Shown piece by piece: positions 3,558-31,461 of a stretch of 32,000 nucleotides of DNA; position 1 is the first letter of the stretch, and every line of letters starts with the position of its first letter. The stretch is from an uncultured archaeon (GTDB lineage Archaea > Iainarchaeota > Iainarchaeia > Iainarchaeales > Iainarchaeaceae): NCBI GenBank assembly GCA_964577555.1, contig CAZNZM010000004.1, positions 23,200-55,199 of the forward strand, in the 5' to 3' direction. The notes beneath the pieces are model-generated. The model was not told the DNA's origin, made no database searches, and worked only from the letters and a program-made list of their open reading frames with translations. The position numbers were made by a program, and so were the translations under genes.

Positions 3558-5333
3558 TCAAGACTCTTTTAAATTATCATAAACTGAAACCCTGATAGAA
3601 ATCTTAACAGAATTTGACACACCCTTGTCATTAGAAACAGTAAGAAAAACATTGTGGTCACCAACATCATTAACACTAAAAGTTTTGGAAAAAGTTTTGC
3701 CTTCAACAGGCTCAGAATCATCAACCCTCCAAACCCAAGAAACAATTTTATTGCCAAGAGGATCAAAAGAATTGCTCCAAAAATCGACATCAACATCATT
3801 GCTTTCAGAAGTTATTATTACCGGATTTAGCGGAGAAAAACCTATCAAAGCAACAGGCTTCAAAGACAAAGGAGAAACAGAAACAACATCATACGGCTCC
3901 TGTTTTTTATAAACCCAAATCTTAACCTCTCTTTGAGTCCCATCCTTCAACGGCAAAGTCTTATTCACAACATACCTTTCCGCATTATCCTTTTTTGTAC
4001 CAAACTCAAACTTCTTGCCAACAACAGCATCAATCGTTGAAATTATGCTCTCTTTCAACAACGAAATGTCACAACCACCTGAACTACAATCAATAATATT
4101 TCCCTTGCTTACTCCGTCACCGCCTGCAAGCAACGCCATATGCTCCTTTATCTTGTTAATAGTTTCAGGGTTTGAATGCAAACCGGAAGAAGGAAAAGAA
4201 ACACAATTAAGTTTGCCATTACAATCAACACAATCATTCGAAGTAACACAAAGATTGCCGACAGAATCGCAAATAGGCGGAGCTCCATTGCCTTTAGGAT
4301 CGGTAAAAATCGGAACAACTCTATAATCATAATTCTTAAGAACAGAAATAGCGTGATTCACAAAAACAAGAGAACGATTGCCATTACTCAAATTACAAGT
4401 TTTATAATAAACCCTAACGTTACTGCCAGTTTCTTGATAACTATAAGGAGTATCAGACTCAGAACCAGAACTCAATTCATCAGAAGCCGGAAATATAAAA
4501 GTCACGGTTGGAAACTCCGACTCCATCCTTGCCTCTGGAACTTCCTTGGCAACATAAGCCGAAGCAGTAGCCCAATCCTCGTAAAACTCTCCTTTAAGAA
4601 TGTTCATATCTGGACTGCAATTAGACATGCAACAAATACGGGCTGGAAACTTGTCAACACCAACAAAATAAGGGCTTTGTGGGTTTTTAAGCGAATCCAC
4701 AAAATACTTATTATAAATACCAACCCCCAAAGAAGGACAAACATTGCCTGTGTTTGTCACAGGTATTTTATGGTCGGCTTCAATATAAGAACAATCAATA
4801 TCAATACTGGTACAATCAAACGAATTATTAGTATTGGTTTTTAGAATGAAAACTTTCTCTTCAAAAATAAAATCCCCCTTGGTGCGAAAAAAAGACTTTA
4901 TGTCAGGGATTATAACATTCAATTTGTCAATATCGTCACGCATGCTGTCAGAACCATCGACAATGAAATAAAGCCTTATTTTCATTTTAGGCGGAATAAT
5001 CTCCATATAATAATTTTCTTTCCCATAAATAGAGTCAAATATTTTTTCAACAATCTCCTTTCTATTAACATTTTGCCCATAATAATTGAAATCATAAGAC
5101 CATGAATATATCATGTCACCCATCAACTGTGCAACACTCATCTTAATGGTTGGTTCTTCAATCTGCAAAATCTCTCCAAAATCTGCTGAAATACGATGCT
5201 GTTCAAAAGCAATCTTATTGCTTTCAAAAACCTTTACGGCTTGGTCAAGCTGATTGAATTGAATCAAAGCCCAACCAGAAAGAAGCATGACAACAATAAT
5301 TACTATTGCAATAATATCTGAAACCGCAGACAT
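3558..5333 (-). CDS. Helix-anchored vWA + PKD protein (modular pilin-like adhesin candidate)
   Basis: The N-terminus is MSAVSDIIAIVIIVVMLLSGWALIQF, a single hydrophobic helix. A MIDAS-like motif YFIVDGSDSM is the rc of 4941-4970. The C-terminal FWSNSFDPLGNKIVSWVWRVDD...GDHNVFLTVSNDKGVSNSVKISIRV fits the PKD consensus. I count 14 Cys. The ATG at 5333 abuts the upstream stop. Confidence 0.75.
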   Translation of the reverse strand: MSAVSDIIAIVIIVVMLLSGWALIQFNQLDQAVKVFESNKIAFEQHRISADFGEILQIEEPTIKMSVAQLMGDMIYSWSYDFNYYGQNVNRKEIVEKIFDSIYGKENYYMEIIPPKMKIRLYFIVDGSDSMRDDIDKLNVIIPDIKSFFRTKGDFIFEEKVFILKTNTNNSFDCTSIDIDCSYIEADHKIPVTNTGNVCPSLGVGIYNKYFVDSLKNPQSPYFVGVDKFPARICCMSNCSPDMNILKGEFYEDWATASAYVAKEVPEARMESEFPTVTFIFPASDELSSGSESDTPYSYQETGSNVRVYYKTCNLSNGNRSLVFVNHAISVLKNYDYRVVPIFTDPKGNGAPPICDSVGNLCVTSNDCVDCNGKLNCVSFPSSGLHSNPETINKIKEHMALLAGGDGVSKGNIIDCSSGGCDISLLKESIISTIDAVVGKKFEFGTKKDNAERYVVNKTLPLKDGTQREVKIWVYKKQEPYDVVSVSPLSLKPVALIGFSPLNPVIITSESNDVDVDFWSNSFDPLGNKIVSWVWRVDDSEPVEGKTFSKTFSVNDVGDHNVFLTVSNDKGVSNSVKISIRVSVYDNLKES

Positions 5334-5756
5334 TCAAACACCTTTAAAGCAAAAATAAACCCGGCCAAGGCATTTTTGCCCCTTACTATTAATAATATTC
5401 ACGACGTAAGAATATTTCCTTTCACAAGAATCATTATTGCCTATTGCCCAAGACTTTTCACTACAACCAAGAAAATTTTCCATTTTGACAACATAACCGG
5501 AAACAACAGGAGTAGTACAATTAGAATTAATGCCAAACCTATCAAACTTGTTTTCGTCAAAAGTGCCAATGCAACGAAAAACAAAATCCCTTACTTGCCC
5601 GCTTTCCTGAAGAGGCTTTATTGAAGGAGTAAGCTGATTTACCGGAACAATAGAAGAATAACCAATATAAACAAGAAACAAAACAACAAAAACAATTATG
5701 ACAACAAGCATAAAAGTTGAAATCATAGAATAAATGCCTCTACAATCCATTGACAT
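5334..5756 (-). CDS. Small pilin-like exported protein (N-terminal RG + hydrophobic helix, 6 Cys after the helix)
   Basis: The N-terminus is MSMDCRG-IYSMISTFMLVVIIVFVVLFLVYIGY. It has an ATG start and lies in the tightly packed pilin string. Confidence 0.6.
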   Translation of the reverse strand: MSMDCRGIYSMISTFMLVVIIVFVVLFLVYIGYSSIVPVNQLTPSIKPLQESGQVRDFVFRCIGTFDENKFDRFGINSNCTTPVVSGYVVKMENFLGCSEKSWAIGNNDSCERKYSYVVNIINSKGQKCLGRVYFCFKGV

Positions 5757-6168
5757 CTATTCTGCCCCCGTTTTTTCTGTTCACCAAAAGCTCGGTTACA
5801 TAAGCAAGGTTAATGCTCAAATTAGAATCTGTACTGCAAAGCAAGATTCTGCATTGCATTATCTCGCCTGAATCAAAACAAATATTATTATCCCTAACCA
5901 AAAACAAGCCTTTTTCAGTCAAAGGATTATACTTATACTTGAAATTATAAGAAGCACAAGCATCATTAATCAAAGTCTGCATTTTAGTAACATCATTCTG
6001 AACCCGCTCGGCTTCAGGCCTCAAATTCTTGAAATTACCCAAAAGCCACATAGAAGCAAGCAATATAGCAGTTATAACTGCCAACCACAAAACAACATCT
6101 GACACCAAACTAGCCTTTGAATTCAAATTCAAAACATTCAAATCAGGCTTTGCACTCAATTTTAACAC
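5740..6168 (-). CDS. Small pilin-like exported protein (4 Cys after the helix); start codon uncertain and non-ATG
   Basis: ...NSKA-SLVSDVVLWLAVITAILLASMWLL. There is no in-frame ATG before the TM helix. The track start at 6168 is GTG, and TTG at 6126 or 6132 would give a short MN(L)NSKA leader. The SLVSD motif resembles SAVSD of 3558..5333. Confidence 0.55.
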   Translation of the reverse strand: MLKLSAKPDLNVLNLNSKASLVSDVVLWLAVITAILLASMWLLGNFKNLRPEAERVQNDVTKMQTLINDACASYNFKYKYNPLTEKGLFLVRDNNICFDSGEIMQCRILLCSTDSNLSINLAYVTELLVNRKNGGRIDVNGL

Positions 6169-6601
6169 CGCCCTTAACCCTTAAAAAAGAACAAGTAAAA
6201 TCAGTTACTGAAAAAGCTTCCCTGTGAAAAGTAGTGTCAAGGTTCAAATCATAATCCTGCGGAGGACAAGAACATTTTACACAATTACTACTGCCTTGAA
6301 ACTCCATACAAATTTTACTGCCAGAAGACCTGGCAAAAACAACAGAACCGCTTGCAAGAGGAAACTTTTCAGACAACAAAGTGTCAACAGCAGAATTGCA
6401 AACAAATTCGCACTTCTGCCCCATTCTTGCAAGCGAATTTTTTATTTGCTGGAGTTTTTGTTGATCAGAACCGGTAGAAACCAAATTAGCCACTATTAAA
6501 AGCCCAAAAACAGCTGTTATTACGCCAACATAGAGCCAAACAGCCTGATCCACAAAATCTCCCCAAAATGAAAGCAAATATAGACATTCATGAACATTCA
6601 A
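6143..6601 (-). CDS. Small pilin-like exported protein (8 Cys after the helix); start codon uncertain and non-ATG
   Basis: ...DQAVWLYVGVITAVFGLLIVANLV helix. The track start at 6601 is TTG, and an in-frame GTG at 6553 would give M-DQAVW.... There is no ATG before the helix. Confidence 0.55.
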   Translation of the reverse strand: MNVHECLYLLSFWGDFVDQAVWLYVGVITAVFGLLIVANLVSTGSDQQKLQQIKNSLARMGQKCEFVCNSAVDTLLSEKFPLASGSVVFARSSGSKICMEFQGSSNCVKCSCPPQDYDLNLDTTFHREAFSVTDFTCSFLRVKGGVKIECKA

Positions 6602-7157
6602 TGTCTATTGCACCATCGCCATCGCTGTCAAATGCACTGGAAAACCAATGAAACTTTTTATCATCATCAGACAAACCAGCATAACACCCGCCAGGCTTGA
6701 TGAATTGCATCAAAAGCTCGGTGGCTTCCTCTCTTGACTTGCCTTCTCTTTTCCAATAATTGCAAAGAAGATCCTTGCACGAAGACATATTCAAATTGGA
6801 AGAGCCGCAAGAAGTCAAAAGAGAACAATAAACCTTGTCGTCACAAACACCAACCCCTGCCTTGAAGCCAGTATTATTATACGACGGAAGAGCCCCCTGC
6901 TTCAAACGAAAATCAAAAGATTTTATGCAAAACTGCGCCAAACTATCAGCATCTCCAGCAGCACACAACCTTGAACATTCAGTCTTGCCACTGGAAATCT
7001 TGTTTTCAAAAGCGGCTTTATCCTGCTCCTCCTGAATTTTAGTGCCCTGCTCCTTGAACTGCTGAGAAACAAGCTGCAAAACCAGCATTGCAACAGCCAA
7101 AAGAACAAAAAGCACAATGAATATTTGAATTGCCATTTCCATTCCTTTCTGATTCAT
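6588..7157 (-). CDS. Pilin-like exported protein with a class III-like signal (MNQKG-MEMAIQIFIVLFVLLAVAML), 10 Cys and a C-terminal DxDxDG loop
   Basis: It has an ATG start that forms an ATGA overlap with the upstream stop. The C-terminus is FDSDGDGAIDIECS. Confidence 0.65.
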   Translation of the reverse strand: MNQKGMEMAIQIFIVLFVLLAVAMLVLQLVSQQFKEQGTKIQEEQDKAAFENKISSGKTECSRLCAAGDADSLAQFCIKSFDFRLKQGALPSYNNTGFKAGVGVCDDKVYCSLLTSCGSSNLNMSSCKDLLCNYWKREGKSREEATELLMQFIKPGGCYAGLSDDDKKFHWFSSAFDSDGDGAIDIECS

Positions 7158-7564
7158 GTTTTTACCTCCACTTTACCTTTATCAACATTCCAATTTATAA
7201 AAAAAGTTTTTACGCTTGCTTTCTCAACATTGCCAAGCACGTTGACATCGCCAACCAAAGCAACCAAATTCTCAGGAACAATATTATACGGTTCGTTAGA
7301 ATGAACAGTAAAACAAATACCGCTATGCAAATTCACACCATAATTCTTATTATAACACTCTTTTATCAAAGCAACCACTTCCCTGTCCGAAACAGAAGTA
7401 ACATCAATAAGATCAGCTCCTGTTGGCGGCTTTTTATCCCCACCAAAAAAACCCAAAATAGAATTCTTTCCAGCACCTATAAGATCCTGACTGAAATTAA
7501 TTACAAGAGTGCCAACTACCAAAACTATGAACAAGGTTATTATCAATTGAACAGGCATCTCCAT
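7154..7564 (-). CDS. Small pilin-like exported protein (MEMPVQLIITLFIVLVVGTLV..., 2 Cys)
   Basis: The track start at 7576 is GTG immediately after a TGA. ATG at 7564 gives MEMPVQL..., paralogous to the MEMAIQI of the next gene. Confidence 0.6.
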   Translation of the reverse strand: MEMPVQLIITLFIVLVVGTLVINFSQDLIGAGKNSILGFFGGDKKPPTGADLIDVTSVSDREVVALIKECYNKNYGVNLHSGICFTVHSNEPYNIVPENLVALVGDVNVLGNVEKASVKTFFINWNVDKGKVEVKT

Positions 7565-7684
7565 AAAAAAAACCACTCAAAACAAGAATAAAACGATTTC
7601 AAAATATTTAAATTAAACGCTTAAAGAACTTTCCAAAAAAACAAACTTGTCCTATAAACAACAAAAAAATAATGACGATTAGGC

Positions 7685-7692: not shown

Positions 7693-8124
7693 TCAAGTTA
7701 TTTTCAACGCATGATTCCCGTTTTCATTGCAAGAAATATTTAAAATCCTTGGCAAAACAAGCGGCGGATTGTCAATCAAAATGCGACAATCAGTACAATA
7801 ATTCATTTTTCTAAAAAAATTATTCAATTTAGCTTCGTCGAGCTCCCCAATTTTGTTGCCATCAAAAGACTCGTCAAGAAGAACAACATTGCCGCAATCC
7901 TTATAAACTTCGCCAAACTGGCACTCTTGCCAACAATAATTAAGCTTTGCCGCAAACTTTGGAAAATTAACTTTGGTTAGGCTTGGTCCGTTGGCAGGAG
8001 GAATAAACATGTTCCTTACAGTATCACCAATCTTGTTAAAATCAAATTGAAAAACAAAAGCGGTTATCAAACCAGCAACTATAATAGTGAAAAAAAGAAA
8101 ACCAACAATTTCAATTGTTTCCAT
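7693..8124 (-). CDS. Pilin-like protein beginning directly with METIEIVGFLFFTIIVAGLITAFVF (E at position 5, no leader); 6 Cys; candidate major subunit
   Basis: It has an ATG start and one N-terminal hydrophobic helix. It is the last gene before the T8 tract. Confidence 0.6.
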   Translation of the reverse strand: METIEIVGFLFFTIIVAGLITAFVFQFDFNKIGDTVRNMFIPPANGPSLTKVNFPKFAAKLNYCWQECQFGEVYKDCGNVVLLDESFDGNKIGELDEAKLNNFFRKMNYCTDCRILIDNPPLVLPRILNISCNENGNHALKIT

Positions 8125-8217: not shown

Positions 8218-10086
8218 TCACCTGACAAGCACCCCTTTGAAAATAATTTCAGTGAAAGCATAATAACCGCCAAACAACAAAGCACTATAAATCAAAAAAG
8301 AAATGGCAAGATTCTCGTAAATGGTTTTTGCAATTTTATATTTGTCCGTGCCATCCCTTATATTTGAAAGAAAAAGAGAAAGTATAATAGAAGTTTCAAT
8401 AAAATACGCGCCAACAATTATCTCAAGAATAGTAGGAGGAATTATGTCTTTTATCTTCACAAGCTCAAGATTAATAGGATTACTTCCAACACTTGTCAAT
8501 ACTTCATTAATCTTCTGCTTAATGAATTCAAGAGACATGACAATAGCAGCAGCCATTACAGTAGCAGTGGTTGCCAACAAAGGAGCCAACACCGTGACGG
8601 AAATACTTACAATAGAAACCGTTTCAGCCAAAAGAGTTTGAATATAATCATCCAACTTGTAAGTTGAAAGAGTCTGCTCCCTTATCATCTTGGCTGATTT
8701 GGCCGCGCTTTTCTGGTCAATCTCGGTAAAAATAACTATCCTCTTAATAATTTGAACCATGCGCCTTGAAGGTGCAACAGAAGGCAAAAACTTTTCAACC
8801 AAATCACCAAGAGACTTTTTGGTATTATAAAGAGCCTCTTCCAATGAAGAAATTATTTTAACAGTAGGATGCTGGCCAAAACCATGGCGTTGATAATCAT
8901 TCACAACATCCTTAAGAATACTCTCCATTGACCTGTTCAAAGAAAGATAACTTGCAAACATCTGCAAAAGGTGAGGCAAATCCCTTTCAGTCTCGTTCAT
9001 TTCAAGCCAAAGCCTTTCATTCCTCTTAGCATAAAAAAAGCAAAAAAGTTCAAAACAAAGAAAAAGACCAAAAAGCCCAAGCCAAATTTTTAAAATAGAA
9101 TCAAGAGCATACTCCCTTGCAATGCCTGAAGGAGTCTCAAGATTAATAGTAGTAATATGAAAAGCAGGAATAATCAAAGCAACCAAGCCAAGACCAACAA
9201 ACACTACATACCACCATTTAGGAATCTCTTTGAAACGAGGGCTTGTTGACAAATCAATAGTATTCACTTGAATCCTATTAGTTGCAAAATTCATGGCCAT
9301 GAAAAGCAAAAGAGTTGGAAAAAAAACCACGTAAAGAAAAATAAGCAAAGGCACATTAGCCAATTGAGGCATAAAAATTGTTATCAAAGGAAGCAAAATC
9401 AAAGACATCATTGGAATCATAACGCCGACAGAAATCAGAGTCTTGGTTTGATTTGAAAGTTTTTCAGTGAAACGCTTGCCAGCATCATAATAACTCAAAA
9501 TAACAGTTTCAATAACTTCATTAATAATAGCCTCCCTTTCAGTCTGCTGGGCAATTGCAGCAGTCTGAAGAAGATTAAGACCTTTAACAAACTCCGGATT
9601 AACCTGCAACCAAATTGGAATATAATACTCAAAAGCTTCACCAATAGTTTTATACTCTTTGGCTTCTATCTTCTCACGTATAGTCCTAAACTGCTTTCCA
9701 AGAGTACCGCCAAGACTTTCGGAAACATTCACAACAGCAGCTTCAACACTCGTATTAAGAAGAATATAATTCGACATTTCAAGTAAAGCCTGAAGCATTT
9801 CCTCCCTAAAAGCAACGATCCGCTGAGTATAATTAATGCTCAAAGCCCACAAAAAAGCCCCGGAAGCAATAATCAAAGCGCCAAAACCAAAAAGATAACT
9901 AAGCAACTGAATAGGAGTTGCAACAACAGCCAAAAACATTAAACCAAAAAAATAAATTACAATGCCAGAAGCAACTTCCTGAGAATTATAAGGAAATTCT
10001 ACCAACCTAAGCTTGTCTTCCCAACTCTGAATCCTTGATACAACCGGAAAACGCCTGCCAACCTCGTATACAAAATCAAAATACAT
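8218..10086 (-). CDS. Polytopic membrane platform protein, divergent PilC/ArlJ(FlaJ)/TadC-like with two T2SS-F-like repeats
   Basis: It is 622 aa with multiple TM segments and two helical cytoplasmic segments with T2SS-F-like patterning (…LGKQFRTIREKIEAKEYKTIGEAFEY… and …LPHLLQMFASYLSLNRSMESILKDVV…). It sits directly downstream of the ATPase. Confidence 0.65.
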   Translation of the reverse strand: MYFDFVYEVGRRFPVVSRIQSWEDKLRLVEFPYNSQEVASGIVIYFFGLMFLAVVATPIQLLSYLFGFGALIIASGAFLWALSINYTQRIVAFREEMLQALLEMSNYILLNTSVEAAVVNVSESLGGTLGKQFRTIREKIEAKEYKTIGEAFEYYIPIWLQVNPEFVKGLNLLQTAAIAQQTEREAIINEVIETVILSYYDAGKRFTEKLSNQTKTLISVGVMIPMMSLILLPLITIFMPQLANVPLLIFLYVVFFPTLLLFMAMNFATNRIQVNTIDLSTSPRFKEIPKWWYVVFVGLGLVALIIPAFHITTINLETPSGIAREYALDSILKIWLGLFGLFLCFELFCFFYAKRNERLWLEMNETERDLPHLLQMFASYLSLNRSMESILKDVVNDYQRHGFGQHPTVKIISSLEEALYNTKKSLGDLVEKFLPSVAPSRRMVQIIKRIVIFTEIDQKSAAKSAKMIREQTLSTYKLDDYIQTLLAETVSIVSISVTVLAPLLATTATVMAAAIVMSLEFIKQKINEVLTSVGSNPINLELVKIKDIIPPTILEIIVGAYFIETSIILSLFLSNIRDGTDKYKIAKTIYENLAISFLIYSALLFGGYYAFTEIIFKGVLVR

Positions 10087-10102: not shown

Positions 10103-11770
10103 TCAATTTTTAGCCATCTCCATTACCCTTTCAGTAAACTGCTTTTTGAACTCATCCTCATTAGCTTTGCCCTGCAAAGGCTTAATCTTCTCAAAAAGAT
10201 CAACATACAAAGTATTAGCCTTCAAAACAAATTCAGCTTCAAGCTTTTGAGGCACTTCTGACATTATGTCAAAATACTTTTGCTTGGCCCAAGCCCTAAG
10301 CATAATATCAGCCAAAGCCGCATTATAATCCTTATAACCTTGGGTATGCTCAATTATTTCATTTATCACAACCGACTTGCCCTTCATAAAAACATCAGTA
10401 GGCACAAGAGTATCGCGTTTAGGATCATAAACCATCAAATCCTGGAAAACAGGTTCATCTTCCCAATCCTTAAGAACTTCAGTAACGGAAACAACACGCC
10501 TAACCCTATGCAAACCAGTAACAGTCTTTATCTGCTTCACCATTATAATCAAATCAGTAACCTTGAAAGAACCTTTTGGCACGCCAAGATCATTAACAAT
10601 CCTGTCATAAACACCATAAGGATTATCAGCATGAATTGTGCCGGCAACAGTCATGGACATGGCGCCAACCCTCATAGCCTCATACAAAACCTTCGCCTCT
10701 TTAGACCTGACTTCACCAAGAATAAGACAAGAATCACCAAGCCTCAAAGAAGTCCTCAAACCATGATCAAACGGAATTTCAAGACCCTCTTCCATCAAAG
10801 CAGACCTTACCTTAAGAGAAAGCAAATCATAACCAAACCTCTTATAATGATCAACAGGCAACTCCTGAGTATCTTCAATAGTAATAATCCTATACTTCTG
10901 CAAAATCTCAGTAATGGTTGCACCAAGCACAGAAGTCTTTCCAGACCCTCTTGGCCCTGCCACCAAAAAAGTCCTGCCATGAGCAATCACAAAAGACATA
11001 AAACCAGCAAACAAAGAATTCAAAGTATTATTCTTCATAAAAAGAGGCAAAGTCCAAGGACTCTCACGATGCTTCCTAATACTATACCCAATCCCATGAA
11101 CAGAAAACGGCGGAACAACAGCCTCAACCCTTGTCCTCACATTCTCAACATACAATTCGCCATCCAATTGAGGCTGAGCCTTGTTCAAAGGCCTGCCAGA
11201 CTCAATCTTCAAATAAGTAGCAAGATAATTCAAAAAATCAATAGAAGGATAAATGTTAGTCATGCACTCTTCAAACTCGTCATGAATCACAATCATAGGA
11301 GTCTGAAACTCTGGAGGATTAATATTAACCTCCTGAATATGAGGATCGCTCAACAAATAATCAAGAATGCCGTGCTTCTTAATCCAAATATTAAGCAACT
11401 GATCGGAAAAATCACGCCTCTCAAACTTTTCCCTAAGTTCCTTCAACTCCTCATACTTCTTGTCCAAACCAGGAATCTTAATAACATAAGCAATTCTAAG
11501 CTTGTCCTCAACATCAATTATGTCAACAGTAGCATCCTTTATATCATAACTCTTCAAAACCTTGCCTTCAAGAGGCTGTATCAACACATCAACAAAAAAA
11601 GGATAAACAACAAAATTCTTCTCCTGCAAATACTGCTGCTTCGTAAAAAGCTTGTTCTTATAAATCAAAATATCCAAATCAGGAGTTGGCTTGACACACG
11701 CATTGCACTGTGGAAAAGCAATATCATTCAAACCATCACAATTCTCACAATCCCTTATCTTATACTTCAT
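10103..11770 (-). CDS. Type II/IV secretion-family ATPase (ArlI/PilB/VirB11-like), divergent, with an N-terminal CxxC-x10-CxxC zinc ribbon
   Basis: Motifs: Walker A FLVAGPRGSGKTS, IITIEDTQELP, Walker B-like CLILGEVRSKEA, and His-box AGTIHADNP. The track start at 11830 is TTG; ATG at 11770 gives MKYKIRDCENCDGLNDIAFPQCNAC. Confidence 0.85.
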   Translation of the reverse strand: MKYKIRDCENCDGLNDIAFPQCNACVKPTPDLDILIYKNKLFTKQQYLQEKNFVVYPFFVDVLIQPLEGKVLKSYDIKDATVDIIDVEDKLRIAYVIKIPGLDKKYEELKELREKFERRDFSDQLLNIWIKKHGILDYLLSDPHIQEVNINPPEFQTPMIVIHDEFEECMTNIYPSIDFLNYLATYLKIESGRPLNKAQPQLDGELYVENVRTRVEAVVPPFSVHGIGYSIRKHRESPWTLPLFMKNNTLNSLFAGFMSFVIAHGRTFLVAGPRGSGKTSVLGATITEILQKYRIITIEDTQELPVDHYKRFGYDLLSLKVRSALMEEGLEIPFDHGLRTSLRLGDSCLILGEVRSKEAKVLYEAMRVGAMSMTVAGTIHADNPYGVYDRIVNDLGVPKGSFKVTDLIIMVKQIKTVTGLHRVRRVVSVTEVLKDWEDEPVFQDLMVYDPKRDTLVPTDVFMKGKSVVINEIIEHTQGYKDYNAALADIMLRAWAKQKYFDIMSEVPQKLEAEFVLKANTLYVDLFEKIKPLQGKANEDEFKKQFTERVMEMAKN

Positions 11771-12311
11771 GAGCCCCACCAACCACACTCTTATCAAACT
11801 TATAACCCGCACGCTCCATAACAGTTTCAATATTATTTATCCTCTTTCCCAACATGCCAACCATTTCAACAAGATTAAGATAAACATTCTTCACACGATA
11901 AGAAGAAACCGCACCATACATCTTCTCAATATCCGCAATCTTAACCATAATCTCCTTAGAACCGTCAGAAATGCCCGCCAAACCATCAGAATCATTCTCC
12001 ATAGAAATAAGACTACGCTCAATATCATCCAACCTTGTTTTGACAAGATCAAGCTTTGCATTAAAAATAACAAAACGCTCATTCAACCTCTCAACCTTTT
12101 CAATACCTTTTTTAGAAAGAGCCTCAGGATTAGCCTTTTCCAACATTTTAATAATCCGCTCAATTTTCATATAAATAAGATTTATTTGTGTGTCAAGAAA
12201 CCTCAACGCTTCAAGAGTCTCCAAATTAGCATCCTTCAAAACAACAAATTGATCAGTATTAACGTCATACGTCTTCCCAAACTGCTTCTGTTCAAAAACC
12301 TCTCGGGACAT
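11760..12311 (-). CDS. Helical/coiled-coil protein of unknown function, co-oriented with the locus A ATPase
   Basis: It has an ATG start and overlaps the ATPase start by 11 nt. The sequence is heptad-like and rich in E, K, L and I. I recognised no motif. Confidence 0.5.
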   Translation of the reverse strand: MSREVFEQKQFGKTYDVNTDQFVVLKDANLETLEALRFLDTQINLIYMKIERIIKMLEKANPEALSKKGIEKVERLNERFVIFNAKLDLVKTRLDDIERSLISMENDSDGLAGISDGSKEIMVKIADIEKMYGAVSSYRVKNVYLNLVEMVGMLGKRINNIETVMERAGYKFDKSVVGGAHEV

Positions 12312-12320
12312 AAAACCAAA

Positions 12321-12989
12321 TCAGCCCCCGAAAATTTTCTTGAGAGAACCAAAAAAATTATCAAAAAAACCAACTTTAACCTCTTCAGGCTTCTTAGGCT
12401 GAACCTGCTCCTTAGACTCCTCTTGGCTTGAAACAACCTTTTGATCCTGCCCAGAAGTAACCTGAATAGCCAATTGCTCCTCAATATACTTTATCCTCTT
12501 CTCAAGAGTCTCCATCACATTAATAAGAGCCATAAAAGTATCCTTGGTCTCGGAAACAGAAAGACCCTGATAAAGCTCTTCAAGAGAAACAACCTTGTTA
12601 TAAAGACTGTCAAATTGATTCTTGCTTATCTTGGTCTGCAAAATCTCCTTAAGCTCGTCATCCCTTTCCTTCAATTCATTAGTCTTCTGAAGAAAAATAT
12701 TCAACTTTGATTCGGCAGAAGCAAGATTCTGCTCCAAATTATTAAGTTTTTGAATAACATCAGTAGCCTCAGTCAAAGGAACCCCAACAGAAACAGTATT
12801 CTCAAGCTGATCAATCTTAGAACTCAACTCCCCAATACTCGCAAGCAAATAATTCTGCTTCTCTTTCAACTTTGGATCCTTGACATTCGCCGGAAAAATA
12901 GAATTCATTGTTGAAGCAACCTGATTCACAGAATCTTTAAGTTCTTGAGTTTCATTAGCCACAAAAACCACACCCAAAAAACATACCAA
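12321..12989 (-). CDS. Coiled-coil protein of unknown function (first gene of locus A); start uncertain
   Basis: The track start at 12989 is TTG. The TATA-like box at 13010-13017 would put the TSS at ~12987, so GTG at 12962 (M-ANETQELK...) or ATG at 12908 are alternatives. It has long heptad-like stretches and ends GFFDNFFGSLKKIFGG. Confidence 0.5.
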   Translation of the reverse strand: MVCFLGVVFVANETQELKDSVNQVASTMNSIFPANVKDPKLKEKQNYLLASIGELSSKIDQLENTVSVGVPLTEATDVIQKLNNLEQNLASAESKLNIFLQKTNELKERDDELKEILQTKISKNQFDSLYNKVVSLEELYQGLSVSETKDTFMALINVMETLEKRIKYIEEQLAIQVTSGQDQKVVSSQEESKEQVQPKKPEEVKVGFFDNFFGSLKKIFGG

Positions 12990-13009
12990 AAAAATAAAAG
13001 AACAATCAC

Positions 13010-13017
13010 ATATAAAT
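13010..13017 (-). promoter_or_regulatory. TATA box (ATTTATAT on minus strand) for the locus A operon
   Basis: It lies in the 194-nt divergent spacer, ~24 nt upstream of the longest-ORF start. Confidence 0.4.
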
Positions 13018-13150
13018 GGATTACTATAAAACCAATTCTACACAAAATATCGGATTTAGTAATAATTCAAAGCCAACTATTCAGCACAAACCCCAAACAA
13101 CAAATAAATTAATATTTCAACCTATTTTTACAAAAAAAACACTAGTGAAC

Positions 13151-13160
13151 ATTAAAATAG
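13151..13160 (+). promoter_or_regulatory. TATA-like box (attaaaatag) for 13184..15241
   Basis: It is centred ~29 nt upstream of the ATG at 13184. Confidence 0.35.
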
Positions 13161-13183
13161 TAGTATGAATTTTATAAATAAAG

Positions 13184-15241
13184 ATGATTCAAGTTAACAG
13201 CAAAGGAAACGCAATAGCAATAGTGCTTGCAGCAGTAGTAATCACGACAATAGTTGTAGTAACATTACAAAACACTCCTCCAATAAATATAAACAATCAA
13301 CAAAACTCAACAGAAAAACTAATGAGCGAATTTGAAAATTCAATAGAAAAAGGCTTCAAAAATTCAACATACAAAATAATGAAAAACGGATTCTCCACAG
13401 ACGACCCAATATGGTTTTACAACAAACCAACCATGCCAAGCTTAAAAGAATTTGACAAAAACTTCACAGACTTAACCAAAAAAGAAATAGAAGAACTGCT
13501 AAAAGAACTCAAAAACAAGACAGGATACGAATACGACCCAGCAAGCCTAAAAGTAGAACTAAAAACCAACATTGACAAAACAAAAAAACCAATTGAACAA
13601 ATAAAAGCCCTGCCAGAAGACAAACCATTGGATTTGGAAATAAACGTGCTGGCAACAGTAAAAGAAGGAGACCAAGAAAAACAAATACAATACACCAAAA
13701 CAAAAAAAATCCCAGCAAATACTATAAAAACATACAAAAAACTTGCAGAATGGATGGAAACAGACATGAAACACTTTGAAATAGAAACGGCAAGCGCAAT
13801 GGACGAAGCAGGATACTGCCAAGTAGCACTATGCGATTGCACAAGCGACCCAGAACCAAGAGATGAAGAAGGCAATTTGTTGAAAATGATAGACGAGAAA
13901 TTCATCAAAGGAAATTACAACACAGAAAACATAAAACCAAAATACGAAAAAATGCTGCAAACAAAAATAGACAAATTAAACCAAAAACTTACAGGGACAG
14001 GCATAACTTGTACATATGAAATAGAAAAATGGGAAACAAGCACAGACGAATACAGAGAACAACAATGCGTGGAACCAAAATCCGATGAATCATTGCAAAG
14101 GCACTGCAAAGAACCAGGCGGAAGATGGCAAAACATAAGAATAAGCGAAACACTTGACAAAATAACAGTAGAAGAACTATACAATAATGAAACAACCAAA
14201 AGAGAACCTAATCAAAACCCACAACAAAAAGACTATGACACAAAATACATTTACTATGAATGGCAAGAAATGAAAGAAAAAGACACTGTGCCAAAAAGAG
14301 AAAAAACAATGGAAAGCAACAACATAATAGGAGAAAAAAGAGAAACAAACCCAAAAATAGAACTAAAAGACTGCGGAAAAGAAAAAAAACATAAAGACGA
14401 ACTAGTTGCACTAAACCCAAAACTATACGCAAAAGTAGCAATCAAATGCAACGAACCGCAAGAATTGATAGGAACAAGCAAAAAAGAAGAAACAGCAACA
14501 ACAATAATAAAAATTGTCACAGCACTTGAAAAAACCTGCCAACCAAAACCGCTTAAACCAAACCCGCCTCTCTCGGCAGAACCAACAAAATGCCTCGGAG
14601 CAAATTCAGCACCAATAATTGAATGCGAAGAAGACATTGACTGCATACCAGAAGAACTAAGAGATCCAAAAATTACAGGAAGCTCAAAAGGAGGAATCTG
14701 CACAAAATTCTGGTGCGAAAAAGACGCACAAAAAATACAAGAAATCATGGAAAGAAACAACAACCTAACCAAAGAACAATACAATAATATAATAAAAAAC
14801 AATAAAGGAGTTTGCAAACAAGAATACGTTGGAATTGATTTAAAACAATGCCCGGGGATAAACAAATGCAACAAAGCAACATGCTCATACATAGATGAAA
14901 GTGGAAACCTTTATCCAAACGGAAGATGCAAATTAGAACCTGTTTTATGCCAAGGAAACAGCACATCAATAAACACATGCGGAGCACCATTAAAATGCGA
15001 CGAAAGCAAAGGATGCATACCCGACACATCAAACACAAACTCATACCTTAATTGCACTGAAAACAAAGAATTATACAAAGGCAGCTGCATAACACCTTCA
15101 TGCGTATGCGACACAAAAGAATGTACAAGATACAAATGCATATCAACCGCAAAAAACGATTTATGCCCTCCAACTAATGAAGGCATATCACAATACTGCA
15201 ACCCAATAAACGGGCTTTGCGAAAGAACAATATACTCATGA
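13184..15241 (+). CDS. 685-aa pilin-like (class III signal-like N-terminus) secreted protein with a cysteine-rich C-terminal half
   Basis: The N-terminus is MIQVNSKG-NAIAIVLAAVVITTIVVVTLQ. I count 32 Cys, 18 of them in the last ~150 aa (CxxxC and CxC spacings). It is K/E/N/T-rich and is transcribed divergently from locus A. Confidence 0.65.
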   Translation: MIQVNSKGNAIAIVLAAVVITTIVVVTLQNTPPININNQQNSTEKLMSEFENSIEKGFKNSTYKIMKNGFSTDDPIWFYNKPTMPSLKEFDKNFTDLTKKEIEELLKELKNKTGYEYDPASLKVELKTNIDKTKKPIEQIKALPEDKPLDLEINVLATVKEGDQEKQIQYTKTKKIPANTIKTYKKLAEWMETDMKHFEIETASAMDEAGYCQVALCDCTSDPEPRDEEGNLLKMIDEKFIKGNYNTENIKPKYEKMLQTKIDKLNQKLTGTGITCTYEIEKWETSTDEYREQQCVEPKSDESLQRHCKEPGGRWQNIRISETLDKITVEELYNNETTKREPNQNPQQKDYDTKYIYYEWQEMKEKDTVPKREKTMESNNIIGEKRETNPKIELKDCGKEKKHKDELVALNPKLYAKVAIKCNEPQELIGTSKKEETATTIIKIVTALEKTCQPKPLKPNPPLSAEPTKCLGANSAPIIECEEDIDCIPEELRDPKITGSSKGGICTKFWCEKDAQKIQEIMERNNNLTKEQYNNIIKNNKGVCKQEYVGIDLKQCPGINKCNKATCSYIDESGNLYPNGRCKLEPVLCQGNSTSINTCGAPLKCDESKGCIPDTSNTNSYLNCTENKELYKGSCITPSCVCDTKECTRYKCISTAKNDLCPPTNEGISQYCNPINGLCERTIYS

Positions 15242-18073: not shown

Positions 18074-19621
18074 ATGGAAGAAAACAAACCAATAAAAGAA
18101 ACAATTCAGAGAATCGCCTTTGAATTAAGAGAAAGCGGAGCAACAGAATGGGAAGTTCTAAAAATAATAAAAGAACTTGAAAACATTACTACATCGGAAA
18201 CACAATACAGAAAACGCGCAGCAGAATTGCTTGAAAAACTCAACCCCGAAGCAGCCAGAACATTCAAATCATTCGAAAAAATGAAAGTATACACTTCGGC
18301 TGAAAAAAGAGAAGCATTTGACAGAGGCAACATAATAAAATCACTACTCAAAGAAACAAGCCTTAGCAGGCACATAGCGGAAAAAATAGGAGCTGAAGTA
18401 GAAGACAAAATAAAAGACATGAAAATAGAACAACTCAACACACAAATAATAAGAGAAATGGTAAGCACAAAACTCCTAGAATACGGACACGAAGTGGGGC
18501 ACAGAGAATACTCAAGAATAGGACTACCAGTCTTTGAAGTAAAGAAAAAACTTGAACAAGGGTTTTTTGAAAACAAAGAAATACTCAAAGAATTTAATTG
18601 GCTTTTCAAAATACCTCTAAAAACAAAACAACTTCACTTCGACTCAATAATAAACATACATTACCCAGAAGATTTTTCAACAAAAATTTTTGCAACAGCA
18701 AAACACCTCAAAGGAGAAAGAGAAGACATACTACTGGCAACCATAGAAGCGGACAAATACATCAGCACACCATTGACAATAACAGCAATAAACTACTCAA
18801 GAGCCGAAAACATAAAAACAGAAAAAAAAGCACAAGAAGAAGCACAAGCGCTAGAAAAAATATTCACGGCAACAGGCAAAAAACGAAACGCACAAATCGC
18901 ATTATTCACAGACTACGAATGGGAAAAATCCGGAACAAAAACCGGAGCAATGCTTCTGGCAAAAGCATTAATGGAAAAAACTGACTCAAAAGCACTTGAA
19001 ACTTCAATCGCAATAGATACAAAATACAAACTAAAACTACTGCCAAAAAGAAAAGAAAACATAAACATACTCAACTATTCAAAAGAAAAAACAACAAAAT
19101 TCGGAAAAATAACAATATGCGGAAACACAAACACAATACTGCAAACAACATCAATCAACACACCAAAAATAATCGAAATTTCAAGCAAAGAAGAATTCTG
19201 GAAAAAACTTGAAGAAATACTGCAAGAAATAAAAGAAATGTGCGAAACAAAAAGAAAAGAACTGGAAAAAAGAAACTACATAGACAAAAAAACATTAGAA
19301 CAAGCCGAAAACGTAATAGCACTTGCAGGACTAAACCAAACAGCAACACAAATAGAACAAAACCATGCAAAAACAATAGAACAAATAATAACAACAGTCC
19401 AAAAACACGGCTTCATAGCATGCTCATCCCCTCCAGAAGACAGTTTGCAACGCTTCGGCATCGAAGAAAAAGAAAACGAATTACAAAAAAAACTACTACA
19501 AATGACACAAAAAACCAGAAAAACATTCGGCCACACTTACATAGCAGAAAACACAAAAGAAGCTGAAACAATACTAAACGACTGCCCAAGCGTCACAATC
19601 CGAAAGACCGATACGGTTTAA
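18074..19621 (+). CDS. ATP-cone domain protein; the remainder is weakly reminiscent of the NrdD N-terminal region but has no glycyl-radical motif
   Basis: The ATP-cone is MKVYTSAEKREAFDRGNIIKSLLKETSLSRHIAEKIGAEVEDKIKDMKIEQLNTQIIREMVSTKLLEYG. DSIINIHYPEDFS loosely recalls the GDIHYHDLDYS of NrdD. I see no RVCGY-type C-terminus. Confidence 0.55.
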   Translation: MEENKPIKETIQRIAFELRESGATEWEVLKIIKELENITTSETQYRKRAAELLEKLNPEAARTFKSFEKMKVYTSAEKREAFDRGNIIKSLLKETSLSRHIAEKIGAEVEDKIKDMKIEQLNTQIIREMVSTKLLEYGHEVGHREYSRIGLPVFEVKKKLEQGFFENKEILKEFNWLFKIPLKTKQLHFDSIINIHYPEDFSTKIFATAKHLKGEREDILLATIEADKYISTPLTITAINYSRAENIKTEKKAQEEAQALEKIFTATGKKRNAQIALFTDYEWEKSGTKTGAMLLAKALMEKTDSKALETSIAIDTKYKLKLLPKRKENINILNYSKEKTTKFGKITICGNTNTILQTTSINTPKIIEISSKEEFWKKLEEILQEIKEMCETKRKELEKRNYIDKKTLEQAENVIALAGLNQTATQIEQNHAKTIEQIITTVQKHGFIACSSPPEDSLQRFGIEEKENELQKKLLQMTQKTRKTFGHTYIAENTKEAETILNDCPSVTIRKTDTV

Positions 19622-27337: not shown

Positions 27338-29077
27338 ATGCCAAACTACATGGACGAACTATTCGAAAAAATAAAAGCAAAAAACCAGCCAAAACAAGAC
27401 AAAGAACAAAAAAACAAGGAAACACAAGAAACCACGCCAAAACAACCACAAGAAGAGCAAAAAACAAAAATTACAATTGAAATACCATACACCAACACAA
27501 AAAAAGAAAACCAAGAAAAACAAAACCCAAGCATTGAAAACCAAAAAACACAACCAAGCCAAAACACTAACGAACCAAAAAACTACGAAGAAGACGAAGA
27601 AAACACAATATCAGAAACAGAAAAAAAAATGGACAAAGCAGAAAAAGAACTTATAGAATCAAACCAATACGGAAAAATATTCAAAATACAAGGACAAGAA
27701 ATGCTATACTACCATTCGCCAGTGACAAGACCAACAGGCGGAGAAAGAGCAATAATAAACACCATAAAAGAAGCCGCAACAAGAATAATCACAATAGTGC
27801 CATACAAAATAAGAGACCCAGAACAAAGACGAAACGTATACTTCCAAAAAATAATAGAAATACTCAGAGAATCCCCAGAACTAAGAATACCATCAAACAA
27901 AATAGAATTCTACGCAGAAGCAGTAGTCAGAGAAATGATAGGATACGGAATAATAGACACACTCATCAAAGACCCAATGCTGGAAGAAATAATGGTAATA
28001 GCCCCAAAAACACCAGTATTCGTATTCCACAGAAAATACGGCATGATGCTCACAAACATAGAATTCTATTCGGACAACGAAATACAAGACCTCATAAACA
28101 GAATGGCAAGAACAATAGGAAGAAGAGTAGACATTGCAAGCCCGCTACTTGACGCAAGACTCCTAGACGGAAGCCGCGTAAACGCCACAATACCGCCAGC
28201 CTCAGTAGAAGGCTCAACACTCACAATCAGAAAATTCAGACCAGACCCATACACCATAATAGACCTAATAAACTACAACACAATAAATTCAGAAGCAGCA
28301 GCTTTCCTATGGTTGGCAGTAGAAGGAATGAGAGCAAGACCAGCAAACATACTCATATCAGGAGGCACAGGCTCGGGAAAAACAACACTTCTAAACGTAC
28401 TAGCCGCATTCATACCAGACGCAGAAAGAGTAATATCAATTGAAGACACAGCAGAACTAAAACTCCCGCTAAAACACTGGGTAAGACTAGAAGCAAAACC
28501 ACCAGGATTGGAAGGCACAGGAGAAATAACAATGGACATACTAACAAAAAACGCACTCAGAATGAGGCCGGACAGAATAATAGTAGGCGAAATAAGACAC
28601 GCAGAAGCCTTTGCACTATTCACAGCAATGAACACAGGACACGCGGGAAGCATGGGAACAGTACACGCAAACTCGCCACAAGAAACAATAGTAAGAGTAA
28701 CAAACCCGCCAATGAACGTGCCAGAAGTAATGATGGCAGGACTAAACTTCATAATAATAGAACACAGACTACACGACAAAAAACTCGGCACAATAAGAAG
28801 AATAACAGAAATAGCAGAAGTAACAGGATCACTCGAAGGAAAAACCAAAACAGAACCAATATACCGAAGAGAAGCAGCAACAGATTCTTTAATAAGAACA
28901 AAAGCCCCAATACAATTCTTAAAACAAATAGAAGAAGGAACCGGCTTGACACAAGACCGAATAATGAAAGAACTCAAAGCAAGACAAGAATTCCTAGAAA
29001 ACCTTGCAGAAAAGAAAATAACAAGACTAGAAGACGTGTCAGAAGCAACTGCAAAATTCCTGTTGGAAGAGAGATAA
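27338..29077 (+). CDS. Type II/IV secretion-family ATPase (ArlI/TadA/PilB-like) with a ~97-aa low-complexity K/Q/E/N/T N-terminal extension
   Basis: Motifs: Walker A ILISGGTGSGKTTLLN, VISIEDTAELKLP, Walker B RIIVGEIRHAEA, and His-box GTVHANSP. An alternative start is ATG at 27629 (MDKAEKEL...). Confidence 0.9.
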   Translation: MPNYMDELFEKIKAKNQPKQDKEQKNKETQETTPKQPQEEQKTKITIEIPYTNTKKENQEKQNPSIENQKTQPSQNTNEPKNYEEDEENTISETEKKMDKAEKELIESNQYGKIFKIQGQEMLYYHSPVTRPTGGERAIINTIKEAATRIITIVPYKIRDPEQRRNVYFQKIIEILRESPELRIPSNKIEFYAEAVVREMIGYGIIDTLIKDPMLEEIMVIAPKTPVFVFHRKYGMMLTNIEFYSDNEIQDLINRMARTIGRRVDIASPLLDARLLDGSRVNATIPPASVEGSTLTIRKFRPDPYTIIDLINYNTINSEAAAFLWLAVEGMRARPANILISGGTGSGKTTLLNVLAAFIPDAERVISIEDTAELKLPLKHWVRLEAKPPGLEGTGEITMDILTKNALRMRPDRIIVGEIRHAEAFALFTAMNTGHAGSMGTVHANSPQETIVRVTNPPMNVPEVMMAGLNFIIIEHRLHDKKLGTIRRITEIAEVTGSLEGKTKTEPIYRREAATDSLIRTKAPIQFLKQIEEGTGLTQDRIMKELKARQEFLENLAEKKITRLEDVSEATAKFLLEER

Positions 29078-29079
29078 AA

Positions 29080-30219
29080 ATGACAGACCTAAACAACCTC
29101 AGAGAAAAAATAGAAGAAAAAAAAGAAAAAAAAACAGAACAAGAACAACCAAAAACCGAAGACTACGTTGACACAAACCAAGTGGAAAAAATAGTTGACA
29201 GAATGAAAAAAAAATACAAACAAGAAGGCCTAGAATTTGAAAAAGCAAAAGGAGAATTAGGAGAACTAAGAGACATAATAGCAGAAGGAGAACAAGAAAA
29301 ACTAAGCGTACAAAGAGTAGAAGACCTCCAAGAATTCCAAAACCCAACAATACAATCCCTAGGAAAATTCTACCTCACATTCAAAACACTACTAAACCCA
29401 ATATCAAACTTCTTCTACAAAATGCCAATAGCAAGCGACGTAAGATACTACTTATATTCAGCAAACATGAAAATGTCACTAATACAATGGCTCGCACTAT
29501 CAGTATCAGCCGCCACAATAGCAGGATTCTTTACACTAACAATGGCAACAGCACTAGTACTCACAATAGAAGCACCATGGTTCCTACCACTAATATTAAC
29601 ACCGATAGTAGCAGCATTCACGCTAATAGTAGCACTATTAATACCAAAAAGCAACGCACAAAGAAGAGGCATAGAAATAAGCAGAGAACTGCCATTCGTA
29701 TTAAGACACATGGCAACAGAACTAAAAGCAGGCATAGGACTATACAAATCACTCCAAACAATAGCAGCCTCAGACTACGGAGTACTAAGCGAAGAATTCG
29801 GAAGAACAATAACAGAAATAGAAGAAGGAACAGACGTAAAAGACGCATTAAGACACTTTGCACTCAGAACACAATCAAAAGCACTAAAAAACTCACTATT
29901 CCACGTCATAAGAGCAATGAAAACAGGAGGCAGCCTCTCAGAAATAATGAACATAATAGCAGAAGACGTAAGCTTCGAAATGCAAGTAAAAATAAAAGAC
30001 TTCTCAGAAAAACTAAACTTCTTCGGAGTAATATTCATTTTCGGAGCAATAGTAGTACCAGTATTCATAGCAATAATAGGCGCAATAACAAACGCACCAG
30101 TAAGCCCCGGCGGAATAAACATACCGCCAATAATGCTAATGGTATTTTACATAATAATAATGCCATTCCTATTAGGATTTTTGGCAATTTTCCTAAAAAT
30201 AACACAACCACAGACGTGA
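29080..30219 (+). CDS. T2SS-F-domain membrane protein (TadB-like half of a split platform)
   Basis: RELPFVLRHMATELKAGIGLYKSLQTIAASDYGVLSEEFGRTITEIEEGTDVKDAL plus flanking TM segments. It starts 3 nt after the ATPase stop. Confidence 0.8.
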   Translation: MTDLNNLREKIEEKKEKKTEQEQPKTEDYVDTNQVEKIVDRMKKKYKQEGLEFEKAKGELGELRDIIAEGEQEKLSVQRVEDLQEFQNPTIQSLGKFYLTFKTLLNPISNFFYKMPIASDVRYYLYSANMKMSLIQWLALSVSAATIAGFFTLTMATALVLTIEAPWFLPLILTPIVAAFTLIVALLIPKSNAQRRGIEISRELPFVLRHMATELKAGIGLYKSLQTIAASDYGVLSEEFGRTITEIEEGTDVKDALRHFALRTQSKALKNSLFHVIRAMKTGGSLSEIMNIIAEDVSFEMQVKIKDFSEKLNFFGVIFIFGAIVVPVFIAIIGAITNAPVSPGGINIPPIMLMVFYIIIMPFLLGFLAIFLKITQPQT

Positions 30220-30223
30220 AAAC

Positions 30224-31177: not shown

Positions 31178-31320
31178 TAAAAGAAGAAAAAGCACAAGGT
31201 TCAACAGAAACACTATTAGCATTAGGATTGGCAGTAGTAGCAGCTGTAACAGTGGGATTTTTTATCAAAAACTACGTAACCGAAAAAATAGCCCCGGAAG
31301 TGGAGGAAAAGATTGATTAA
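31174..31320 (+). CDS. 48-aa mini-pilin with a class III signal peptide (MIKEEKA-QGSTETLLALGLAVVAAVTVGFF...), below the track cutoff
   Basis: Hand translated. It forms an ATGA overlap with the preceding stop. It has Q at +1 and E at +5 relative to the predicted KA|Q cleavage site. Confidence 0.7.
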   Translation: MIKEEKAQGSTETLLALGLAVVAAVTVGFFIKNYVTEKIAPEVEEKID

Positions 31321-31392
31321 GGAGTTTGACTAACTTATACGTAACAAAAATTATTCATTTTAAAAAAGAAAAAAATGGAGGATGATAAAAAA

Positions 31393-31461
31393 ATGAACAC
31401 AAAAGGACAAGGAGCACTAGAATACCTACTACTAATCGGAGGAGCAGTAGTAGTAGCAGCA
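31393..31461 (+). repeat. 69-nt 5' pilin cassette repeated at 31932-32000 with one mismatch (g/c at cassette position 14)
   Basis: I compared the two stretches directly, base by base. Confidence 0.9.

Follow-up and report, generated by a model that had tools for sequence, protein, structure and literature searches.

The window analysed here is a stretch of 32,000 nucleotides from an uncultured archaeon of the phylum Iainarchaeota (assembly GCA_964577555.1, contig CAZNZM010000004.1, positions 23,200 to 55,199), and the gene with which this study is concerned, hereafter the target, occupies positions 13184–15241 of its plus strand. The target opens with an ATG, closes with a stop codon at 15239–15241 and encodes a 685-residue protein, the founding member of an undescribed family; it lies beside a type IV filament gene cluster on the minus strand, which we call locus A. 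A preliminary description of this DNA, drawn from the letters alone, took the product for a pilin-like protein, and the features that it listed (685 residues, 32 Cys, 18 of them in the final 150 residues, two Cys motifs and a composition rich in Lys, Glu, Asn and Thr) are all borne out by the sequence. The N-terminus reads MIQVNSKGNAIAIVLAAVVITTIVVVTLQ, the Cys motifs are CPGINKCNKATC at residues 556–567 and CITPSCVCDTKEC at residues 635–647, and the composition is 12.7% Lys, 10.8% Glu, 8.6% Thr and 7.9% Asn. Compared with the 0.8% Cys found in the cytoplasmic proteins of the window, the excess in the target is far beyond chance, with a binomial P of 7e-15 over its full length and one of 7e-16 over the final 150 residues. 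Most of the predicted exported proteins of the cluster contain 2.4–5.9% Cys, the small locus A protein p140a being lower (1.4%). The target also has eight N-glycosylation sequons and a single segment of membrane-helix grade: 19-residue windows starting at residues 6–14 give Kyte–Doolittle means of 1.8–2.9, and the maximum outside this N-terminal segment is 0.48. It has no match among Pfam, NCBIfam or Protein Data Bank (PDB) sequences.

The public collection contains an identical protein (P0001) and an orthologue with 81% identity (P0002). The latter is encoded on a fully syntenic metagenome contig, L003, and retains all 32 Cys residues of the target. This conservation, the high Cys content that the target shares with most exported proteins of the cluster and its glycosylation sequons speak for an extracytoplasmic location. 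The ratio of nonsynonymous to synonymous substitution rates (dN/dS) between the target and P0002 is 0.24 by the Nei–Gojobori method. Thus, the target open reading frame (ORF) is a real gene under constraint.

Class III signals are defined by a leader ending in Gly or Ala, followed by about 20–21 hydrophobic residues (PMC8179133; PMC4858521). The preliminary description had recognized this layout at the N-terminus of the target, and our family alignment upholds it. The predicted leader peptide, MIQVNSKG (residues 1–8, 13184–13207, plus strand), ends in Lys-Gly, with a putative prepilin-peptidase site between G8 and N9. Residues 9–28 (NAIAIVLAAVVITTIVVVTL; 13208–13267, plus strand) comprise N9 and then 19 uncharged, mostly hydrophobic residues; this is the sole hydrophobic segment of the protein, it is modelled by AlphaFold2 (AF2) as a helix at residues 10–29, and it resembles the N-terminal part of the pilin α1 helix. 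Hence the target combines a short leader that ends in Gly and has a charged residue at −2 with some 20 hydrophobic residues after the site, as expected of a pilin. The start codon of the orthologue on L003 is a GTG that lies four codons after the ATG of the window, which makes its leader MNSKG rather than MIQVNSKG. Across 25 divergent members the motif around the putative site is [KRH]-[GA]/N (the slash marks the site): position −2 is Lys, Arg or His in all 25, position −1 is Gly in 24 and Ala in the remaining one, and position +1 is Asn in 23. Ala occupies positions +4 and +9 in 19 members each, and the uncharged run after the site is 19–20 residues long in most. Overall identity within the family is only about 20%, yet conservation clusters at the N-terminal edge of the helix, and G8 is among only about nine near-invariant columns of the alignment. 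The class III (prepilin-type) layout of the target is therefore well supported, although its Asn at +1 is unusual.

The family itself came to light through an exhaustive HMMER scan that covered 1.84 billion cluster representatives, whereas word-indexed searches returned only the target itself, the 81% orthologue and one relative. The scan gave 21 proteins at E ≤ 1e-3, 11 of them at E ≤ 1e-10, with matches that align to query positions 4–310 and beyond. A single-protein search with the target in GTDB genomes gave nothing, and no description of the family was found in the literature searched. The alignment is divergent, without any conserved stretch of 7–10 columns; P0016 (121 residues) was omitted from the core alignment, as it ends in ...EIGRASCRERV and looks like a contig-end or assembly artefact. 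The members share a conserved core, which in the target covers residues 1–456 (13184–14551, plus strand) and includes about eight conserved Cys; its invariant residues are W77, W190, L265, C276, C308 and C422. A Pro-rich linker, QPKPLKPNPPLSAEPTK, follows at residues 453–469 (14540–14590, plus strand), and at this position the relatives have low-complexity stretches rich in Gly, Asn/Gly, Asp/Asn or Pro. The rest of the protein, residues 470–685 (14591–15238, plus strand), is a variable disulfide-rich module with 23 Cys. The tails of the relatives differ wholly in length and sequence; most contain 10–13% Cys over 200–440 residues, two are Pro-rich and one has a Hint/intein-like domain. Alignment with the target extends through its tail in P0003 and P0006 only.

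The preliminary description compared the Cys spacings of the tail to EGF- or knottin-like modules, and this comparison is not supported. The tail matches no Pfam family at E ≤ 1 and has no PDB sequence relative at E ≤ 10, and neither the core profile nor the tail found anything meaningful in PDB sequence searches; EGF and knottin modules were therefore rejected. The nearest known elements are Dicty_CTDC repeats (PF00526) of the CxDxNxCTxDxC type in the tails of two relatives, P0011 above threshold (42.1 bits against a cut-off of 27) and P0005 weakly. The tail of the target is like them in Cys density and in its short C-x4-6-C spacings, but it has no such match itself and, by self-BLAST, no internal repeat of the kind that had been suggested as worth searching for. 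A PilY1-like identity was likewise rejected, since DUF2341, vWA and the PilY1 C-terminal domain are unmatched (Pfam and NCBIfam) in the target and 22 relatives. In the divergent member P0019 (L024, 8421–10847; GCA_002505525.1, DAVJ01000079.1), the tail is not purely Cys-rich and ends in the Hint/intein-like domain mentioned above (Pfam Intein_splicing 1.2e-7, Hint 4e-6), which hints at C-terminal autoprocessing in that protein.

An AF2 model of the core, built from a 19-sequence core alignment, reached a predicted local distance difference test score (pLDDT) of 80 and a predicted TM-score (pTM) of 0.77. Its body is mixed α/β, with long β-hairpins at residues 275–296 and 403–450. The full-length model from a two-sequence alignment was uninformative (pLDDT 35).

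Locus A lies immediately upstream of the target and is transcribed divergently from it. Its first two genes, all on the minus strand like those that follow, encode the coiled-coil proteins cc222 (222 residues, 12321–12989), with only weak coiled-coil-type Pfam matches, and cc183 (183 residues, 11760–12311). Orthologues of cc222 precede the ATPase gene in L003, L005, L006, L007, L011–L013, L015–L017, L019, L021 and L022, and those of cc183 keep the same position. The third gene (10103–11830) encodes a FlaI/TadA-type secretion ATPase (Pfam T2SSE, 5.6e-19) with an N-terminal CxxC...CxxC extension. Its NCBIfam matches to FlaI (8.9e-35) and TadA (1.4e-34) do not reach the curated cut-offs, and that to BasE (1.2e-25) is likewise sub-threshold. 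It is 98% identical to its close orthologue on L003 and 57–73% identical to those of related loci; the closest ATPases in GTDB (57–72% identity) come nearly all from metagenome-assembled genomes (MAGs) of Candidatus Iainarchaeum archaeon (phylum Iainarchaeota, DPANN/Nanobdellati). The N-terminal extension (DCENCDG...PQCNAC) is invariant in five aligned orthologues and resembles a zinc ribbon. Directly downstream of the ATPase gene in all loci is that of a 622-residue polytopic membrane protein (8218–10086), presumably the platform and a single-gene analogue of FlaJ/TadC, whose sole match is a sub-threshold one to Spore_III_AB.

Six small pilin-like proteins of 140–190 residues, with N-terminal hydrophobic helices, and one large protein of 591 residues are encoded further along locus A. 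The candidate major pilin, p189 (6588–7157), has the N-terminus MNQKG/MEMAIQIFIVLFVLLAVAMLVLQLV; its [KR]G and MEMAIQ helix are near-identical in eight loci (that of L020 diverges), and the whole proteins are 35–47% identical. The [KR]G placement of the target is shared by p189 and by p140b (5334–5756), a class III-type protein whose orthologues read [KR]G/[IV]YS..., and a similar motif, [KRH][GA][ST], precedes the helix in most orthologues of p142 (5740–6168). The remaining small proteins have no leader, to judge from the N-termini of their orthologues: p143 (7693–8124) starts with M(E/Q)TIE, p140a (7154–7576) with MEMPVQ and p152 (6143–6601) with ME(Q/N)xVW, each followed by the helix. The large protein, PKD591 (3558–5333), has an N-terminal hydrophobic helix, a DxSxS motif and a C-terminal PKD domain (Pfam PKD_4, 1.6e-6). 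p143, p140a, p152 and PKD591 all begin directly with the hydrophobic helix (ME... or MSAVS...). Their opening residues are similar to the mature N-terminus of p189, and these four may be pilin-like proteins for which a peptidase is unnecessary. The motif of PKD591, [IVLM]xD(G/T/S)SxS[ML]xxD at residues ~124–134 (DGSDS in the window), occurs in 10 of 11 orthologues with sequence over this stretch and looks like the metal ion-dependent adhesion site (MIDAS) of a vWA domain missed by Pfam; the target has no such DxSxS motif. In three loci an extra gene for a protein of 220–255 residues lies between the homologues of PKD591 and the target (L007, 9237–10004; L009, 3362–4108; L013, 18788–19444). The encoded protein combines a Sec-like signal with a Cys-rich segment (CNxxGxC...CPxDC...DGxC...CDPDC) and is anchored by a C-terminal transmembrane segment; the gene has no counterpart in the window.

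Members of the target family are carried by 16 distinct loci (the window, L003–L007, L009, L013–L016, L020, L021, L024, L026 and L027), mostly from Candidatus Iainarchaeum MAGs. The orthologous ATPase is present in 11 of them, and the platform in 10 of these 11, the short L006 contig stopping inside the ATPase gene. Longer contigs contain nearly the complete set of genes, the order and orientation of which vary. No other gene accompanies the target family as constantly as that of the PKD591 family, which occurs in 15 of the 16 loci; in 12 loci it either adjoins the member or has a single gene in between. The five loci with no ATPase on the examined DNA carry the most divergent members, and in these too a PKD591-family gene lies directly beside the member or one gene off; homologues of p152, p142 and p140b are present in L027 as well. 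When 12 GTDB loci were fetched through the ATPase alignment, six included a member, 2.9–7.8 kb downstream of the ATPase gene, and in each of the six without one the sequence stops within 4 kb after that gene. The preliminary description had proposed looking for homologues beside similar genes elsewhere and held that a complete lack of such linkage would tell against a pilin. The outcome is the reverse: 11 of the 16 loci hold the ATPase and the other five hold the partner or pilin-like cluster genes, so that the target family is linked to the ATPase, the platform and other pilins of a type IV filament.

Evolutionary rates were compared between the window and L003. The lowest dN/dS in the cluster is that of p189 (0.019); the ATPase has a value of 0.027, the platform one of 0.051 and PKD591 one of 0.17. 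Because its helix is near-identical across loci and its dN/dS is the lowest, we take p189 as the probable major pilin of locus A. In the target, dN/dS rises from 0.11–0.15 in the core to 0.39 in residues 457–555 and 0.56 in residues 556–685; all Cys residues are retained in these fast-evolving regions. Fast evolution thus marks the exposed parts of the system, namely both large proteins and most of all the tail of the target.

The spacer between the target and locus A measures 194 nucleotides (12990–13183), as the preliminary description stated, if the TTG at 12989 is taken as the start of the divergent gene; the start annotated by JGI lies 12 nucleotides further in and makes it 206. Two blocks in it are conserved between the window and L003. 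The putative promoter block of the target (13144–13183, plus strand) has two TATA-like elements, TTAAAATA at 13152–13159 and TTTATAAATA at 13171–13180, and the promoter-like block upstream of locus A (12990–13030, minus strand) has a TATA-like element at 13010–13017; the function proposed for the former follows the archaeal TATA consensus and its spacing, which suggests near-leaderless transcripts. The same description took the shared spacer as a sign of co-regulation, a suggestion that our comparison does not favour. The blocks are separate, about 140 nucleotides apart, the intervening sequence is unconserved (about 90 nucleotides of it are absent from L003), and in most loci the target-family gene is co-directional with the cluster, within it or at its end, so that the divergent arrangement is absent. 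The functional link between the target and locus A therefore rests on conserved co-occurrence and not on the spacer.

A second type IV filament locus, with a split platform, lies at 27338–31779 of the window (plus strand). It comprises a 579-residue ATPase, half-size FlaJ/TadC-like platform genes (379 and 317 residues) and two small pilins, and resembles Epd or 'system 1' loci. Both pilins have canonical class III signals, MIKEEKAQGSTETLLALGLAVV (~31175–31317) and MEDDKKMNTKGQGALEYLLLIGG (31375–31779; Epd-like, KG/QGALEYLLL); thus, the organism makes class III substrates. Flanking genes of archaeal type encode topoisomerase I, an Lrp/AsnC regulator, RFC, NreA, ThrRS and NFACT. A 515-residue protein rich in Lys and Glu (18074–19621, plus strand) has a borderline ATP-cone match (26.5 bits against a cut-off of 25.8), and its gene is conserved beside the Lrp/AsnC gene in L003. 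Two membrane proteins near the target (251 and 169 residues) were considered as peptidases or cluster members and rejected, as they have no Pfam match and no homologues in other clusters.

Taking these data together, we lean towards the target being a large minor pilin-like subunit, or a pilus-presented adhesin, of an Iainarchaeota-specific type IV filament (TFF) system, and rate this somewhat better than an even chance; its cleavage, filament incorporation, tip location and adhesive role are what we infer. On this interpretation, the basic leader MIQVNSKG would hold the N-terminus in the cytoplasm while the 20-residue hydrophobic tract enters the membrane and the remainder is exported. A class III (A24-family) signal peptidase would cut after Gly8, and the mature protein, from Asn9, would dock through its helix with the candidate major pilin p189 and the putative minor pilins p140b and p142, the FlaI-like ATPase and the 622-residue platform driving assembly. 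Too bulky for the filament body, the 75-kDa ectodomain would sit at the tip or the base, probably with PKD591; the same steric reasoning has been applied to the tip location of modular pilins (PMC8179133). The conserved, disulfide-stabilized core of 450 residues would be the structural and docking part, and the flexible Pro-rich linker would hold out the fast-evolving disulfide-rich module, which would bind a surface or host ligand.

Several observations weigh against this interpretation. Asn at +1 is not among the residues of characterized archaeal processing sites, which are of the KG/Q or RA/L type, PibD being lax at this position (PMC4371748). Neither the window nor any of the 27 loci yielded a prepilin peptidase gene in Pfam and NCBIfam scans or in a search for GxGD in ORFs with multiple transmembrane segments, which gave one, irrelevant match. 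The target is unmatched by any curated pilin or class III model in Pfam or NCBIfam, and 22 family members gave a single marginal match, to PRK10557 (E = 0.045). In the AF2 core model, the helix at residues 10–29 is followed by a low-confidence Pro-Pro linker (30–40) and a second helix (43–67), and the model does not show a continuous α1 of about 50 residues as in canonical pilins. Foldseek searches of PDB and BFVD with this model matched no pilin or other fold (best PDB E-value 0.19, TM-scores <0.15). HHalign comparison of the core with the six small pilin-like families and PKD591 found similarity to the small pilins of the cluster that is weak and confined to the N-terminal helix (best P = 1e-3, with p189; probability 20%), and a shared pilin module is therefore not demonstrated. 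Finally, the ATPase does not lie within 8–10 kb of the most divergent members. The preliminary description had spoken of a modular pilin. Its modular part stands, as the protein is built of a core, a low-complexity linker and a variable Cys-rich tail; its pilin part stands for the N-terminus, which is well supported as pilin-type, and not for the globular module after the helix, where Foldseek, HHalign and the domain models recognize no pilin module in the target and no functional domain that is known.

Some of these observations would suit a protein that is never cleaved. The target could be a signal-anchor (type II membrane) protein, either a surface-anchored adhesin or an envelope-spanning pilus accessory (stator-, collar- or S-layer-interacting, or FlaF/FlaG-like), rather than a filament subunit. 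The N-terminal helix, the only one of its kind in the protein and flanked on the cytoplasmic side by a positive residue, fits such an anchor, and the conserved Pro-containing linker of low confidence and the discontinuous helix 43–67 look more like an anchor and stalk than like α1. No peptidase gene is seen nearby, and the helices of p143, p140a, p152 and PKD591 have no leader, so that not every helix in the system needs cleavage. However, an anchor hardly explains a near-invariant Gly at −1 and Asn at +1 in a family of about 20% identity, nor why the candidate major pilin p189 has the same [KR]G placement, and a hypervariable distal module after the helix is typical of exposed adhesins. We regard an uncleaved anchor as rather unlikely, though a serious contender.

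A class III signal need not imply a filament, since in archaea such signals are also found on non-pilin proteins, such as the substrate-binding proteins of the bindosome (PMC4371748; PMC4858521). The target might be processed and then serve as a bindosome-like surface protein that uses type IV filament machinery near the membrane, as in the sugar-binding proteins of Sulfolobus, and the BasE match of the ATPase agrees with this. However, the target has no solute-binding domain in Pfam or NCBIfam, and the ATPase scores higher for FlaI and TadA than for BasE, which makes this possibility improbable. A Sec-secreted protein, released in soluble Cys-rich form after removal of the helix as a type I signal peptide, is very unlikely by rule-based judgement: the closest relatives do have a semi-conserved L/M-Q-[ANS]-[TSV]-P after the helix, but the uncharged tract of 19–20 residues is long for a Sec h-region (7–15 residues), the target has L-Q-N before the Pro and hence no small residue at −1, and no small-x-small (AxA-like) site is conserved after the helix across the family, in which conservation is concentrated where the helix begins.

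If the target is a pilin-like subunit, its closest analogues are the modular and large minor pilins that are well established in bacteria, including PilB and PilC of S. sanguinis, CofB of enterotoxigenic Escherichia coli (ETEC) and GspK of type II secretion systems (PMC8179133). As in these, a class III-type N-terminus is found on a protein several times the size of the major pilin, encoded in one copy per cluster together with an ATPase, a platform and several small pilins, and a bulky C-terminal module, to which we would likewise assign a tip location and ligand binding, is joined by a linker. In contrast, the target has no sequence similarity or detectable fold similarity to these proteins and no recognizable pilin module; it has a Pro-Pro break and no Glu5, its 450-residue core is of unmatched fold, its variable module is a disulfide-rich tail instead of a vWA or lectin domain, and its host is a DPANN archaeon.

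Among archaea, large 'minor pilin or adhesin' proteins with signal peptides and Cys-rich components recur in the loci of type IV pili (PMC4858521; bioRxiv 10.64898/2026.04.22.720090). Locus A resembles the loci of Makarova et al. (2016; PMC4858521) and those of 'system 2' (bioRxiv 10.64898/2026.04.22.720090) in its single-gene platform, the N-terminal extension of its ATPase, its large adhesin-like proteins and the conserved Cys of its exported components. It also has a mixture of pilin-like proteins with and without class III signal peptides (SPIII), as described for 'system 2' loci in the 2026 survey (bioRxiv 10.64898/2026.04.22.720090). The adhesins of those loci are PilY-like (DUF2341), Ig-fold-rich or S-layer-like, whereas the target matches none of these and no Pfam or NCBIfam model, and the main text of neither study mentions Iainarchaeota or Diapherotrites. 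The EppA-dependent Epd pilins of Methanococcus (KG/Q...E5; PMC4371748) likewise have Lys-Gly at −2 and −1 and an amide at +1, but this is Gln in Epd and Asn in the target, which also differs in having no Glu at +5, in its 685 residues and in its single-platform rather than split-platform (system 1) locus. What is new here is the family, its core without a model or fold match, the KG/N site, the design of core, linker and hypervariable tail, the pairing with PKD591 and the definition of the Iainarchaeota cluster.

A more specific form of the minor-pilin interpretation is possible, and we put it forward tentatively. The target family would be the host- or substrate-recognition subunit of the Iainarchaeota-specific pilus: a pilin-like core of novel fold, processed at KG/N and placed at the tip with the vWA/PKD partner, would display a diversifying disulfide-knotted module, replaced by Pro-rich or Hint tails in some lineages, that sets the partner cell or surface.

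Genomes are tiny in Iainarchaeota and other DPANN archaea, which presumably rely on contact with other cells or with surfaces. To our knowledge, the molecules that make this contact are almost entirely unknown. The present analysis defines a conserved 12-gene pilus cluster, the exported parts of which are all unannotated, and adds a protein family that is new and whose fold, modelled with confidence, is unmatched in PDB. The variant class III site KG/N might be of use in adjusting pilin predictors to DPANN genomes. Within the cluster, the target and its vWA/PKD partner stand out as the likely contact-making parts, and the fast-evolving, Cys-rich tail of the target is a candidate for host or surface specificity.

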